64,000 bases of DNA from Escherichia coli. GTDB taxonomy: Bacteria > Pseudomonadota > Gammaproteobacteria > Enterobacterales > Enterobacteriaceae. The DNA lies in the NCBI RefSeq assembly GCF_041248615.1, contig NZ_CP158426.1; one strand, 5' to 3'. This document shows positions 18,293 through 24,079 of the stretch, one piece after another. The notes beneath the pieces are model-generated. The model ran no database searches. It saw only the letters and a program-made list of their open reading frames with translations, and had not been told where the DNA came from. The position numbers and the translations under genes were made by a program. The stretch's first letter is position 1. Each line of letters opens with the position of its first letter.

Positions 18293-18520
18293 TTAGATGA
18301 TAAATGACAGCAGGAATGTGCCCGCCAGAGCGACGACTGAAGCGATAAATGTCGCGGTCGTATAGTATTTAAATGTTTCATTGAGCGTAGCGTCGCAATA
18401 TTGCTTCACCAGCCAGAAAAGCGAGTCCGTAACGATCGTGCAGCCAATCGCACCTGAACCGATAGCAATCGCAATAATTTCCGGGCTGATGTCGGGATAC
18501 AGCGGCAGCACAATGATCCA
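18293..18520 (-). pseudogene. dsdX: dsdX D-serine permease (GntP family), 3' fragment only (~72 codons)
   Basis: Minus-strand frame encodes a GntP-family C-terminal TM segment ...[59 protein letters not shown]; in-frame stop at 18524-18526, no upstream dsdX sequence, cscR begins ~230 bp further on. Confidence 0.8.
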
Positions 18521-18753
18521 TATTTATATTTTCTTCTCCAGATTGGCGATGCCAGTTGGCATGTTTTACCTACTTGCCTACATGGTTACTCGTTGGCGAG
18601 AACAGAGGCGGAATTGGGTACAATTGTCCGGGAATTATTGTTATTTTTTATTGTATTGCCGTGTCGGGTGATAGGGCGTCGAGAATATCGTTGGATCTCG
18701 CCAGTGACGTCTGTTTCTGCTACAGTGCCCGTTTTACGGCAAACGGCTTGGGT

Positions 18754-19749
18754 ATGGCTTCATTAAAGGATGTCGCACGCCTGGCGGGAGTGTCGATGAT
18801 GACAGTCTCCCGGGTGATGCATAATGCAGAATCTGTGCGTCCTGCAACGCGTGATCGCGTATTGCAGGCAATCCAGACCCTGAATTATGTTCCTGATCTT
18901 TCCGCCCGTAAGATGCGCGCTCAAGGACGTAAGCCGTCGACTCTCGCCGTGCTGGCGCAGGACACGGCCACCACTCCTTTCTCTGTTGATATTCTGCTTG
19001 CCATTGAGCAAACCGCCAGCGAGTTCGGCTGGAATAGTTTTTTAATCAATATTTTTTCTGAAGATGACGCTGCCCGCGCGGCACGTCAGCTGCTTGCCCA
19101 CCGTCCGGATGGCATTATCTATACAACAATGGGGCTGCGACATATCACGCTGCCTGAGTCTCTGTATGGTGAAAATATTGTATTGGCGAACTGTGTGGCG
19201 GATGACCCAGCGTTACCCAGTTATATCCCTGATGATTACACTGCACAATATGAATCAACACAGCATTTGCTCGCGGCGGGCTATCGTCAACCGTTATGCT
19301 TCTGGCTACCGGAAAGTGCGTTGGCAACAGGGTATCGTCGGCAGGGATTTGAGCAGGCCTGGCGTGATGCTGGACGAGATCTGGCTGAGGTGAAACAATT
19401 TCACATGGCAACAGGTGATGATCACTACACCGATCTCGCAAGTTTACTCAATGACCACTTCAAATCTGGCAAACCAGATTTTGATGTTCTGATATGTGGT
19501 AACGATCGCGCAGCCTTTGTCGCTTATCAGGTTCTCCTGGCGAAGGGGGTACGTATCCCGCAGGATGTCGCCGTAATGGGCTTTGATAATCTGGTTGGCG
19601 TCGGGCATCTGTTTTTACCGCCGCTGACCACAATTCAGCTTCCACATGACATTATCGGGCGGGAAGCTGCATTGCATATTATTGAAGGTCGTGAAGGGGG
19701 AAGAGTGACGCGGATCCCTTGCCCGCTGTTGATCCGTTGTTCCACCTGA
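18754..19749 (+). CDS. cscR: LacI-family sucrose operon repressor CscR (331 aa)
   Basis: Product begins MASLKDVARLAGVSMMTVSRVMHN (helix-turn-helix) at the internal ATG 18754, followed by a periplasmic-binding-protein-like sugar-binding domain; the longer upstream ORF start is rejected. Confidence 0.9.
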   Translation: MASLKDVARLAGVSMMTVSRVMHNAESVRPATRDRVLQAIQTLNYVPDLSARKMRAQGRKPSTLAVLAQDTATTPFSVDILLAIEQTASEFGWNSFLINIFSEDDAARAARQLLAHRPDGIIYTTMGLRHITLPESLYGENIVLANCVADDPALPSYIPDDYTAQYESTQHLLAAGYRQPLCFWLPESALATGYRRQGFEQAWRDAGRDLAEVKQFHMATGDDHYTDLASLLNDHFKSGKPDFDVLICGNDRAAFVAYQVLLAKGVRIPQDVAVMGFDNLVGVGHLFLPPLTTIQLPHDIIGREAALHIIEGREGGRVTRIPCPLLIRCST

Positions 19750-19756
19750 TATTATG

Positions 19757-21405: not shown

Positions 21406-22329
21406 ATGTCAGCCAAAGTATGGGTTTTAGGGGATGCGGTCGTAGATCTCTTGCCAGAATCAGACGGGCGGCTACTGCCTTGTCCTGGCGGCGCGCCAGC
21501 TAACGTTGCGGTGGGAATCGCCAGATTAGGCGGAACAAGTGGGTTTATAGGTCGGGTCGGTGATGATCCTTTTGGTGCGTTAATGCAAAGAACGCTGCTA
21601 ACTGAGGGTGTCGATATCACGTTTCTGAAGCAAGATGAATGGCACCGGACATCCACGGTGCTTGTCGATCTGAACGATCAAGGAGAACGTTCATTTACGT
21701 TTATGGTCCGCCCCAGTGCCGATCTTTTTTTAGAGACGACAGACTTGCCCCGCTGGCGACATGGCGAATGGTTACATCTCTGTTCAATTGCGTTGTCTGC
21801 CGAGCCTTCGCGTACCAGCGCATTTACTGCGATGACGGCGATCCGGCATGCCGGAGGTTTTGTCAGCTTCGATCCCAATATTCGTGAAGATCTATGGCAA
21901 GACGAGCATTTGCTCCGCTTGTGTTTGCGGCAGGCGCTACAACTGGCGGATGTCGTCAAGCTCTCGGAAGAAGAATGGCGACTTATCAGTGGAAAAACAC
22001 AGAACGATCGGGATATATGCGCCCTGGCAAAAGAGTATGAGATCGCCATGCTGTTGGTGACTAAAGGTGCAGAAGGGGTGGTGGTCTGTTATCGAGGACA
22101 AGTTCACCATTTTGCTGGAATGTCTGTGAATTGTGTCGATAGCACTGGGGCGGGAGATGCGTTCGTTGCCGGGTTACTCACAGGTCTGTCCTCTACGGGA
22201 TTATCTACAGATGAGAGAGAAATGCGACGAATTATCGATCTCGCTCAACGTTGCGGAGCGCTTGCAGTAACAGCGAAAGGGGCAATGACAGCGCTGCCAT
22301 GTCGACAAGAACTGGAAGGTGAGAAGTAA
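21406..22329 (+). CDS. cscK: fructokinase CscK (PfkB/ribokinase family, 307 aa)
   Basis: MSAKVWVLGDAVVDLL...GAGDAF with ribokinase-family motifs. Confidence 0.92.
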   Translation: MSAKVWVLGDAVVDLLPESDGRLLPCPGGAPANVAVGIARLGGTSGFIGRVGDDPFGALMQRTLLTEGVDITFLKQDEWHRTSTVLVDLNDQGERSFTFMVRPSADLFLETTDLPRWRHGEWLHLCSIALSAEPSRTSAFTAMTAIRHAGGFVSFDPNIREDLWQDEHLLRLCLRQALQLADVVKLSEEEWRLISGKTQNDRDICALAKEYEIAMLLVTKGAEGVVVCYRGQVHHFAGMSVNCVDSTGAGDAFVAGLLTGLSSTGLSTDEREMRRIIDLAQRCGALAVTAKGAMTALPCRQELEGEK

Positions 22330-22390
22330 ACGGCGAGGCCGCTCTTATCTCTAAATAGGACATGAATTTTTTAACGACAGGCAGGTAATT

Positions 22391-23638
22391 ATGGCACTGA
22401 ATATTCCATTCAGAAATGCGTACTATCGTTTTGCATCCAGTTACTCATTTCTCTTTTTTATTTCCTGGTCGCTGTGGTGGTCGTTATACGCTATTTGGCT
22501 GAAAGGACATCTAGGATTAACAGGGACGGAATTAGGTACACTTTATTCGGTCAACCAGTTTACCAGCATTCTATTTATGATGTTCTACGGCATCGTTCAG
22601 GATAAACTCGGTCTGAAGAAACCGCTCATCTGGTGTATGAGTTTCATTCTGGTCTTGACCGGACCGTTTATGATTTACGTTTATGAACCGTTACTGCAAA
22701 GCAATTTTTCTGTAGGTCTAATTCTGGGGGCGCTCTTTTTTGGCCTGGGGTATCTGGCGGGATGCGGTTTGCTTGACAGCTTCACCGAAAAAATGGCGCG
22801 AAATTTTCATTTCGAATATGGAACAGCGCGCGCCTGGGGATCTTTTGGCTATGCTATTGGCGCGTTCTTTGCCGGTATATTTTTTAGTATCAGTCCCCAT
22901 ATCAACTTCTGGTTGGTCTCGCTATTTGGCGCTGTATTTATGATGATCAACATGCGTTTTAAAGATAAGGATCACCAGTGCATAGCGGCGGATGCGGGAG
23001 GGGTAAAAAAAGAGGATTTTATCGCAGTTTTCAAGGATCGAAACTTCTGGGTTTTCGTCATATTTATTGTGGGGACGTGGTCTTTCTATAACATTTTTGA
23101 TCAACAACTCTTTCCTGTCTTTTATGCAGGTTTATTCGAATCACACGATGTAGGAACGCGCCTGTATGGTTATCTCAACTCATTCCAGGTGGTACTCGAA
23201 GCGCTGTGCATGGCGATTATTCCTTTCTTTGTGAATCGGGTAGGGCCAAAAAATGCATTACTTATCGGTGTTGTGATTATGGCGTTGCGTATCCTTTCTT
23301 GCGCGCTGTTCGTTAACCCCTGGATTATTTCATTAGTGAAGCTGTTACATGCCATTGAGGTTCCACTTTGTGTCATATCCGTCTTCAAATACAGCGTGGC
23401 AAACTTTGATAAGCGCCTGTCGTCGACGATCTTTCTGATTGGTTTTCAAATTGCCAGTTCGCTTGGGATTGTGCTGCTTTCAACGCCGACTGGGATACTC
23501 TTTGACCACGCAGGCTACCAGACAGTTTTCTTCGCAATTTCGGGTATTGTCTGCCTGATGTTGCTATTTGGCATTTTCTTCCTGAGTAAAAAACGCGAGC
23601 AAATAGTTATGGAAACGCCTGTACCTTCAGCAATATAG
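22391..23638 (+). CDS. cscB: sucrose:H+ symporter CscB (MFS, LacY-like, 415 aa)
   Basis: 415-aa 12-TM ORF resembling the oligosaccharide:H+ symporter family. Confidence 0.92.
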   Translation: MALNIPFRNAYYRFASSYSFLFFISWSLWWSLYAIWLKGHLGLTGTELGTLYSVNQFTSILFMMFYGIVQDKLGLKKPLIWCMSFILVLTGPFMIYVYEPLLQSNFSVGLILGALFFGLGYLAGCGLLDSFTEKMARNFHFEYGTARAWGSFGYAIGAFFAGIFFSISPHINFWLVSLFGAVFMMINMRFKDKDHQCIAADAGGVKKEDFIAVFKDRNFWVFVIFIVGTWSFYNIFDQQLFPVFYAGLFESHDVGTRLYGYLNSFQVVLEALCMAIIPFFVNRVGPKNALLIGVVIMALRILSCALFVNPWIISLVKLLHAIEVPLCVISVFKYSVANFDKRLSSTIFLIGFQIASSLGIVLLSTPTGILFDHAGYQTVFFAISGIVCLMLLFGIFFLSKKREQIVMETPVPSAI

Positions 23639-24079
23639 ACGTAAACTTTTTCCGGTTGTTGTCGATATCTCCATATCCCTCAACCGGAAAATAATAATAC
23701 AAAAATGCTTAGCCCAACTAATAATCACCTAATCCAAACGCCTCATTCATGTTCTGGTACAGTCGCTCAAATGTACTCCGGATACGCGGTTCGCTGATTT
23801 CCAGGACATTGTCGTCATTCAGCGACCTGTCCCGAGTATCACGGGCCTGCGAATTCATCAAGGAATGCATTGCAGAGTGAAGTATCGAGTCACGCCATAT
23901 TTCGCTATCAGGATTCTGTATGATGGTTACATCGCCCAGCCCAGGGCTGTTTAGTCATCAGCGCTTTCTGACAGTGCTGAGATTTCAACCTGTTGCAGTA
24001 AAAATGAGTAGATATAGGGCAAGTGTGCTGCCAAACCCATCTTTTACGGGGTGAAGGTAGATTTGGTTTGAAGGGTATC

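Follow-up and report, generated by a model that had tools for sequence, protein, structure and literature searches.

An intact csc sucrose-utilisation locus between argW and a truncated dsdX gene in an Escherichia coli genome

The window analysed here is a stretch of 64,000 nucleotides of the Escherichia coli contig NZ_CP158426.1. Between a truncated dsdX gene and the tRNA gene argW it carries four csc genes, together with predicted regulatory sites and the remnant of a further gene. The features of this segment and of its borders are as follows (window positions):

16944-18275, minus strand: dsdA, D-serine ammonia-lyase, 443 aa, intact (TIGR02035, E=2e-244; dsdA in the collinear record)
18293-18511, minus strand: dsdX stump, a pseudogene comprising the last 72 codons (residues 374-445 of 445; NF007395 profile positions 374-445)
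18512-18712, no strand: orphan left flank of about 200 bp, between the end of K-12 homology at 18510 and the start of Citrobacter homology at 18713
18754-19749, plus strand: cscR, LacI-family repressor of the csc operons, 331 aa (Pfam LacI HTH and Peripla_BP_1)
19757-21190, minus strand: cscA, GH32 invertase, 477 aa (GH32 N and C domains; TIGR01322, E=5e-143)
21225-21236, no strand: predicted CscR operator 1, a perfect 12-bp palindrome, GTTAACGTTAAC (sequence match to published operators)
21270-21285, no strand: candidate CRP-like site, TGCGATGAATATCACA, read from the sequence, between the two operators
21289-21300, no strand: predicted CscR operator 2, a perfect 12-bp palindrome, GTTAACGTTAAC (sequence match to published operators)
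21406-22329, plus strand: cscK, PfkB-family fructokinase, 307 aa (NF006957, E=2e-152; PfkB domain)
22391-23638, plus strand: cscB, sucrose:H+ symporter of the LacY/oligosaccharide MFS family, 415 aa (LacY_symp, E=9e-194)
about 23735-24013, minus strand: decayed DUF4942 gene remnant, cut at both ends and containing stops (Pfam DUF4942, E=1.4e-9)
24080-24154, minus strand: argW, tRNA-Arg(CCU) (ARAGORN; Rfam tRNA, 63.4 bits)

Both the open reading frames and the family profiles place the four csc genes where the initial annotation had put them and in the same orientation, and no internal stop was found in the csc ORFs or in dsdA. The convergent genes cscR and cscA have their stop codons 7 bp apart, the divergent genes cscA and cscK are separated by an intergenic region of 215 bp, and the co-directional cscK and cscB by a gap of 61 bp. 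CscR is identical in 329 of its 331 residues to the E. coli W protein named 'Sucrose operon repressor'. The catalytic motifs of CscA are intact (WMNDPNG with the nucleophile at 36, RDP at 160 and the acid/base motif ECP at 215), its closest solved structure being 7vco (E=1e-173). CscK scored 506.8 bits with the NF006957 fructokinase profile, for which the cut-off is 450; it contains the motifs GGAPAN and GAGD (the latter at 248), and its closest solved structure is the fructokinase 5ey7 (E=8e-95). The exact CscB sequence is found in the UniRef cluster 'Sucrose permease RepID=CSCB_ECOLX'. Residues D129, R147, E270, R300, H320 and E323 of CscB align with the charge-relay residues E126, R144, E269, R302, H322 and E325 of LacY, and position 353 is the wild-type Q353.

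We consider that window positions 18511-24079 correspond, with a probability of about 95%, to the well-known four-gene E. coli sucrose-utilisation (csc) locus, intact and ordinary. The arrangement is already known and has been published (PMC3032704, PMC7486766, PMC11251922), and we found nothing in the sequence that argues against this assignment. A homology check of the sugar pathway, which had been suggested along with the initial annotation, assigned all four genes to csc families. It could be argued that the four genes serve another sugar (fructo-oligosaccharides, raffinose or a galactoside) and that the sucrose label is a habit of annotation: CscB is a close relative of LacY and of the raffinose permeases (TIGR00882, NF007077), the GH32 family also includes inulinases and levanases, and the names given by NCBI, 'aminoimidazole riboside kinase' for CscK and 'sucrose-6-phosphate hydrolase' for CscA, are not those of the csc system. 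These NCBI names are family-level and depart from the roles demonstrated in the csc system. Against this proposal, the CscB sequence is named after CSCB_ECOLX, a sucrose permease entry of Swiss-Prot, CscR and the repressor of W share 99% identity, and sucrose growth has been reported to depend on the csc genes (PMC3032704, PMC7486766, PMC3938415), as in EHEC, where deletion of cscA or of the whole csc locus abolished it (PMC7486766). We therefore hold a role in the use of another sugar to be scarcely credible.

The mechanism given here for the csc products is the one published for EC3132 and W, carried over to this strain by inference from sequence identity. CscB would bring sucrose into the cell together with a proton, CscA would cleave the cytoplasmic sucrose into glucose and fructose, and CscK would phosphorylate the fructose so released. 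The scr sucrose PTS regulon (scrK, scrY, scrA, scrB and scrR; pUR400, Klebsiella and B2 E. coli) likewise combines a GH32 hydrolase, a fructokinase and a LacI-type repressor for sucrose, but uptake there relies on the porin ScrY and the PTS enzyme II ScrA, and sucrose-6-phosphate is hydrolysed, whereas the csc system described here uses an MFS proton symporter. No ORF for a PTS EII (ScrA) or a porin (ScrY) was found in the interval, CscB being its sole transporter.

Regulation was examined in the region between cscA and cscK. The palindrome GTTAACGTTAAC occurs twice in the 64 kb, against an expectation of 0.15, and both copies lie in this intergenic region; the pair is kept, with its 64-bp spacing, in Citrobacter amalonaticus and in O157:H7. 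In PMC11251922, Jahreis 2002 is cited for a 12-bp inverted repeat, present in two copies, that constitutes the CscR operators, and by sequence both palindromes match the published CscR operators. CscR would be expected to bind the two palindromes in the 215-bp cscA/cscKB region and to repress both promoters, and high sucrose would lift its repression of cscA and cscKB. Lying between the predicted operators, TGCGATGAATATCACA agrees with TGTGA-N6-TCACA in 9 of the 10 half-site bases. A Crp site beside the cscA -35 has been reported (PMC11251922), and such a site may add catabolite control to the csc promoters. A sigma-70 consensus scan of positions 18200-24300 returned 0 promoter-like sites versus 8.1 in shuffled sequences, so the positions of the csc promoters rest on the literature. 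Terminator-like matches in the scanned csc region fell inside coding regions and were disregarded, and an Rfam scan of 16500-26500 gave nothing besides the tRNA.

The csc regulon of EC3132, W and O157:H7 is said to have been described by Bockmann 1992, Jahreis 2002, Moritz & Welch 2006 and Archer 2011. Gene content, order, orientation and protein lengths in that regulon match those found here, and the two 12-bp operators, the position between argW and dsdX' and the loss of dsdC are likewise shared; there is no difference of substance. Comparison with O157:H7 and W, which the initial annotation had recommended, bore out the assignment: next to the match of CscR to its W counterpart, the O157:H7 csc locus shows 98.55% nucleotide identity across window positions 16981-24102. 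CscK comprises 307 aa here versus 304 aa in the O157:H7 record. In both O157:H7 and W, argW is separated from the csc spacer by prophage DNA (a lambdoid prophage at argW in the case of W; PMC3032704), whereas the argW att site of the present strain is unoccupied. The same four csc genes, with equal spacing and orientation and with both operators, are present in C. amalonaticus (PQLZ01000006.1), with 80.5% nucleotide identity over window positions 18713-23706. There they are flanked by the sugar ABC transporter genes ytfQRT-yjfF on one side and by an MCP gene and fbp on the other, not near argW or dsd, and neither the 0.2-kb left flank nor the DUF4942 remnant accompanies them.

K-12 resembles the window on both sides of the segment, with mlaA, yfdC and argW on one side and dsdA, emrY and emrK on the other (97-98% identity). 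When aligned with K-12, the window interval 18511-24079 has no match in the argW-emrK region, as had been claimed for the four genes, and csc has been reported to be missing from K-12 (PMC11251922). The alignment breaks also confirm that the csc genes are located between argW and a dsdX stump. Of the interval proposed at first, 18520-24079, the right end stands; the left junction lies at 18510/18511, within dsdX, and the DUF4942 pseudogene remnant, which had gone unlisted, is included in addition to the four csc genes. At argW, K-12 carries the 10.2-kb CPS-53 (KpLE1) prophage with the integrase gene intS and a 15-bp argW repeat (pawZ), all of which the window lacks; in K-12, complete dsdC and dsdX follow (intact dsdCXA), where the window carries csc instead. 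The initial annotation was right in viewing argW as an insertion site, used by CPS-53 and by prophages, but not in contrasting a K-12 prophage with csc: K-12 has CPS-53 plus intact dsdCXA, and in about 1170 genomes csc is accompanied by an insertion at argW. Collinearity of the window with NZ_OW967178.1 throughout was considered and rejected, as the first 6.6 kb differ, which gave the IS1 observation.

Among 5426 complete E. coli genomes, at least 80% of the segment is present in 2645, and the identical dsdX::csc junction in 2684. The locus is a common one, carried beside argW by about half of E. coli, where it takes the place of part of the D-serine genes. A junction common to so many genomes points to a single ancestral event. 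On the dsd side of this junction, the dsdX stump is 97.2% identical to K-12 DsdX (tblastn) and is labelled 'missing N-terminus' by RefSeq. DsdC gave no tblastn match in the whole 64-kb window, so its retention elsewhere in the window was rejected; dsdC is frequently retained in csc+ strains (PMC11251922). The replacement of dsdC and of the 5′ part of dsdX is thereby upheld, dsdC and the first 373 dsdX codons being gone. The orphan left flank, which lies upstream of cscR and presumably holds its promoter, is single-copy and occurs in only about 2691 genomes, together with csc; positions 18511-18753 have no paralogues elsewhere in E. coli.

At the other end, argW is identical to K-12 argW and divergence begins directly past its 3′ CCA, the 3′ end of the tRNA gene being the right boundary of the segment. 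The DUF4942 remnant covers positions 5-62 of the 190 of the Pfam profile and shows 73-76% nucleotide identity to a full-length 288-aa gene of strain R7, which closes a CP4-type island in that strain; RefSeq annotates a 50-aa ORF at 23718-23870 in this region. In prophage-bearing csc+ strains, a 23-bp argW repeat is located between the prophage and the spacer, which indicates that the spacer behaves as the chromosomal side of attB.

These borders bear on whether the segment is a present or recent site-specific argW island, with csc as its cargo, that is able to excise and transfer. The right boundary falls exactly at the tRNA 3′ end, the adjoining remnant is of the DUF4942 type that closes the R7 island, and argW serves as the insertion site of CPS-53 in K-12 and of prophages in O157:H7 and W. 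Neither an integrase nor an excisionase nor a transfer gene, however, was found in 18511-24079 (ORF list and domain search), in keeping with the earlier remark that no integrase is present: the interval holds no integrase-sized ORF or domain. As had been proposed, the argW 3′ end was sought as a direct repeat near 18520, and no such repeat was found in or around the segment; the 15-mer CTGCAGGGGACACCA, with up to 3 mismatches allowed, matched only argW itself and one chance site at 38220. The left end lies within dsdX and lacks an att-like repeat, the GC content (48.1%, versus 49.0% for the whole window) does not set the segment apart from its surroundings, and both the behaviour of the spacer in prophage-bearing strains and the junction common to 2684 genomes speak against an island of this kind. 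We judge it highly improbable; present-day mobility of the segment is largely refuted, and what the window carries is a fixed replacement rather than a mobile element that is still active.

As for its origin, an old event would have placed about 5.57 kb between the argW 3′ end and dsdX codon 373, removing dsdC. Of this DNA, 5.0 kb would be the csc module, 0.2 kb the orphan left flank and 0.37 kb a right flank containing the dead DUF4942 gene. A possible but rather doubtful elaboration is that the 441-bp cscB-argW spacer is the scar of a CP4-type island which brought a Citrobacter-like csc into argW and then suffered deletions, one taking the integrase and the interior, and the other the distal att site, dsdC and most of dsdX. 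The locus is usually described just as 'acquired by recombination', and such a scar, if real, would supply a concrete one-step history; the idea may already be in print.

With regard to phenotype, the arrangement as such had been correctly described as known, while the term 'sucrose-positive' for the lineages that carry it proved an overstatement. No csc+ scr- isolate grew fast on sucrose: of 29 isolates, growth was slow or very slow in 23 and absent in 5, most of which had no visible csc defect (PMC11251922). Induction of csc in E. coli W requires at least 1% sucrose (PMC3938415). Judging from its sequence, the present strain probably grows slowly on sucrose and has a high threshold for its use. 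Whether the locus, though intact, is so weak or cryptic that routine tests would class the strain as sucrose-slow or sucrose-negative appears to us evenly balanced. Next to the isolate data and the high inducing concentration in W, the known de-repressing or affinity mutations are all absent, given that CscB has the wild-type Q353 and that CscR and both operators are intact; in contrast, growth at high sucrose is fast in E. coli W, whose CscR is nearly identical (PMC3032704, PMC3938415). A weak or cryptic locus would refine the main explanation, that of an intact and ordinary csc locus, and not contradict it.

The value of the present assignment is that of correct annotation only, and no open question becomes testable through this locus. 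The csc+ dsdCX- genotype marks the strain as probably belonging to a phylogroup in which csc is usual (B1, D or E; PMC11251922). The dsdA gene is intact but has neither its activator DsdC nor its partner transporter. Use and detoxification of D-serine should therefore be beyond the strain, which from its gene content is probably incapable of D-serine catabolism. A silent dsdA in a csc+ background has been covered before, and D-serine sensitivity has been reported (PMC7486766). If the locus is indeed weak or cryptic, the main effect of the replacement would be the loss of D-serine catabolism and not the gain of sucrose use. In attaching-and-effacing E. coli, an inability to catabolise D-serine has been connected with a restricted niche (PMC7486766).

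Alignment with K-12 MG1655 delimits the sucrose-utilisation (csc) segment on both sides. Homology extends over 13000-18510 (97.8% identity) and 24080-26953 (96.7%), and in the alignment of the argW region there is no K-12 match between 18510 and 24080. The left break (18510/18511) lies within dsdX and the right one immediately 3′ of the argW CCA end. A K-12 DsdC query gave no match anywhere in the 64-kb window, and the only match to K-12 DsdX is a stump of the gene. From these breaks and queries it follows that the 5,569 bp of 18511-24079 occupy the place of a short K-12 flank, dsdC and codons 1-373 of dsdX, as the initial annotation had proposed for the four csc genes, which are absent from K-12. 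That a prophage lies at argW in K-12 is also correct (the 10.2-kb CPS-53, flanked by a 15-bp argW repeat), but it is present in addition to dsdC and dsdX and not, as had been stated, instead of csc.

The following layout was compiled from the ORF list, a tRNA scan and family scans:

14137-15300, plus strand, emrK
15300-16838, plus strand, emrY
16944-18275, minus strand, dsdA (443 aa, intact)
18293-18511, minus strand, dsdX stump (residues 374-445 of 445)
18754-19749, plus strand, cscR (331 aa)
19757-21190, minus strand, cscA (477 aa)
21406-22329, plus strand, cscK (307 aa)
22391-23638, plus strand, cscB (415 aa)
24080-24154, minus strand, argW, tRNA-Arg(CCU) (tRNA scan)
24230-25162, minus strand, yfdC
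25456-26211, plus strand, mlaA

The RefSeq annotation of the collinear chromosome NZ_OW967178.1 has identical coordinates, with 100% identity over 18000-24600. The orientations read initially hold: cscR and cscA are convergent, with 7 bp between their stop codons, and cscA diverges from cscKB across 215 bp.

Elsewhere in the window, a complete 768-bp IS1 (5878-6645; ORFs InsA and InsB; left inverted repeat exact at 5878-5900, right one ending at 6645) takes the place of about 3.9 kb of NZ_OW967178.1, a stretch running from the end of ypdI through yfdX and frc into the 5′ portion of oxc; yfdX and frc are missing entirely, and of oxc only the last 196 codons (6632-7222) survive. The strain appears to have lost the oxalate/formyl-CoA acid-resistance genes through an IS1-associated deletion. 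On the far side of mlaA, at the position of yfdF in K-12, a low-GC stretch (0.31-0.38) encodes a hypothetical protein of about 415 aa (26390-27637, minus strand) with no Pfam or NCBIfam match in the family scans. A seven-gene yfc-type chaperone-usher fimbrial operon, intact in appearance, lies at 34981-41406 (plus strand; subunit, usher, chaperone, three minor subunits and a StfH/YfcO adhesin).

None of the csc ORFs contains an internal stop or a frameshift, and the protein families point to the csc pathway, not to a different sugar pathway. CscA has both GH32 domains (Pfam) and intact catalytic motifs (WMNDPNG at 36, RDP at 160, ECP at 215), its closest solved structure being the sucrose-6-phosphate hydrolase 7vco (E=1e-173). 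CscK scores 506.8 bits, above the cut-off of 450 of the NCBIfam fructokinase equivalog, and carries the PfkB GAGD motif; the nearest solved structure is fructokinase 5ey7. CscB matches LacY_symp end to end (E=9e-194), and alignment to LacY structures places E126, R144, E269, R302, H322 and E325 of LacY at D129, R147, E270, R300, H320 and E323. Its exact sequence belongs to the UniRef cluster represented by CSCB_ECOLX, "Sucrose permease", and position 353 is the wild-type Q353. CscR combines LacI HTH and sugar-binding domains and shares 329/331 residues with the E. coli W protein named "Sucrose operon repressor".

The palindrome GTTAACGTTAAC occurs twice in perfect form in the cscA-cscK intergenic region (21225-21236 and 21289-21300), at a distance of 64 bp, and nowhere else in the window (0.15 copies expected). 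According to the summary of Jahreis et al. (2002) in Stephens et al. (2024; PMC11251922), the CscR operators are "two copies of a 12 bp inverted repeat" flanking the cscA promoter, accompanied by a Crp site. A putative CRP site, TGCGATGAATATCACA, is read between both palindromes (21270-21285; good match).

The comparison with O157:H7 that had been suggested gave 98.55% identity over 16981-24102. In O157:H7 YB14-1 (7100-14122 of its locus), a 23-bp copy of the argW 3′ end adjoins the 441-bp cscB-argW spacer and is followed by prophage genes, whereas the site is empty in the window. Beyond that copy lie a recombinase gene, P22-like tail-needle and DNA-transfer pseudogenes and IS1203; the DNA at argW in YB14-1 is a decayed prophage.

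At least 80% of 18000-24600 is present in 2645 of 5426 complete E. coli genomes. With a 200-bp probe spanning the dsdX::csc junction, a full match is obtained in 2684 genomes, the remainder matching the dsdX half only; the 243-bp left flank (dsdX stump to cscR) is found in 2691 genomes and the spacer, as a single copy, in 2644. From one junction shared by half of the species we infer a single ancestral replacement, with subsequent inheritance and recombination. The 200-bp spacer::argW probe matches fully in only 1470 genomes; judging from this count and the YB14-1 arrangement, the spacer behaves as chromosomal DNA bordering the argW attachment site, which is occupied in roughly 1170 csc-positive genomes. 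The spacer and 15 nt of the argW end also match NZ_CP026085.1 (4.83 Mb), labelled as the K-12 derivative DH5alpha; being unexpected for K-12, this match suggests a mislabelled or non-K-12 assembly.

The csc segment is not a mobile island at present. Within it, the ORF list and annotation contain no integrase, as first noted, or other mobility gene; the argW 3′ end is not repeated in or around the segment, not even near the left boundary, where a search for direct repeats had been suggested; GC content (0.481 against 0.490 for the window) shows no compositional contrast; and on the left the segment ends in an illegitimate break within dsdX. Citrobacter amalonaticus PQLZ01000006.1 (8960-13955 of its locus) also carries a cscR-cscA-cscK-cscB module (80.5% nucleotide identity), flanked by ytfQRT-yjfF on one side and by an MCP gene and fbp on the other, with no tRNA gene nearby. 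Both palindromes are kept at the same spacing there and in O157:H7. The Citrobacter homology is limited to 18713-23706, a 5.0-kb core, outside which E. coli-specific flanks of about 200 bp (left, 18512-18712) and 370 bp (right) remain. The right flank, between cscB and argW, holds a decayed DUF4942 gene (23735-24013, minus strand; Pfam E=1.4e-9, profile positions 5-62 of 190). This remnant is oriented away from argW, lacks the first ~110 and last ~420 nt and is present in essentially all csc-positive E. coli. Over 23735-24013 it is 73-76% identical in nucleotides to a full-length 288-aa DUF4942 gene that in strain R7 terminates a CP4-type island (DUF905, DUF932, antirestriction, JAB, DUF987, YeeU, CbtA, DUF5983, DUF957, DUF4942). 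The flanks and remnant fit, although they do not prove, an old argW island eroded by deletions. The remnant is probably Z3622 of the EDL933 annotation, the promoter of which can drive dsdA after deletions (PMC7486766).

The csc observation is thus confirmed and its interpretation supported, and every point of the initial annotation is already known from published accounts (Archer et al.; PMC7486766; PMC11251922): O'Boyle et al. (2020) reported for EDL933 that cscBKAR removed dsdC and truncated dsdX, and Stephens et al. (2024) described the phylogroup distribution, operators and Citrobacter relatives of csc. Judging from identity with the characterised system, CscB would import sucrose with H+, CscA would split it and CscK would phosphorylate the fructose, the two divergent promoters being presumably governed by CscR and CRP (PMC3938415, PMC11251922). 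The arrangement is that of the lineages initially called sucrose-positive, but that label is too strong for the phenotype, because E. coli W requires high sucrose for induction (PMC3938415) and csc-positive isolates lacking the scr sucrose PTS regulon show slow growth on sucrose or none (PMC11251922). With dsdC and the greater part of dsdX lost, dsdA is predicted to be silent. In EHEC, where the geometry is the same (cscA, convergent cscR, truncated dsdX, dsdA), this loss leads to D-serine toxicity, which can be undone when deletions take out cscR and bring dsdA under control of the cscA promoter (PMC7486766).
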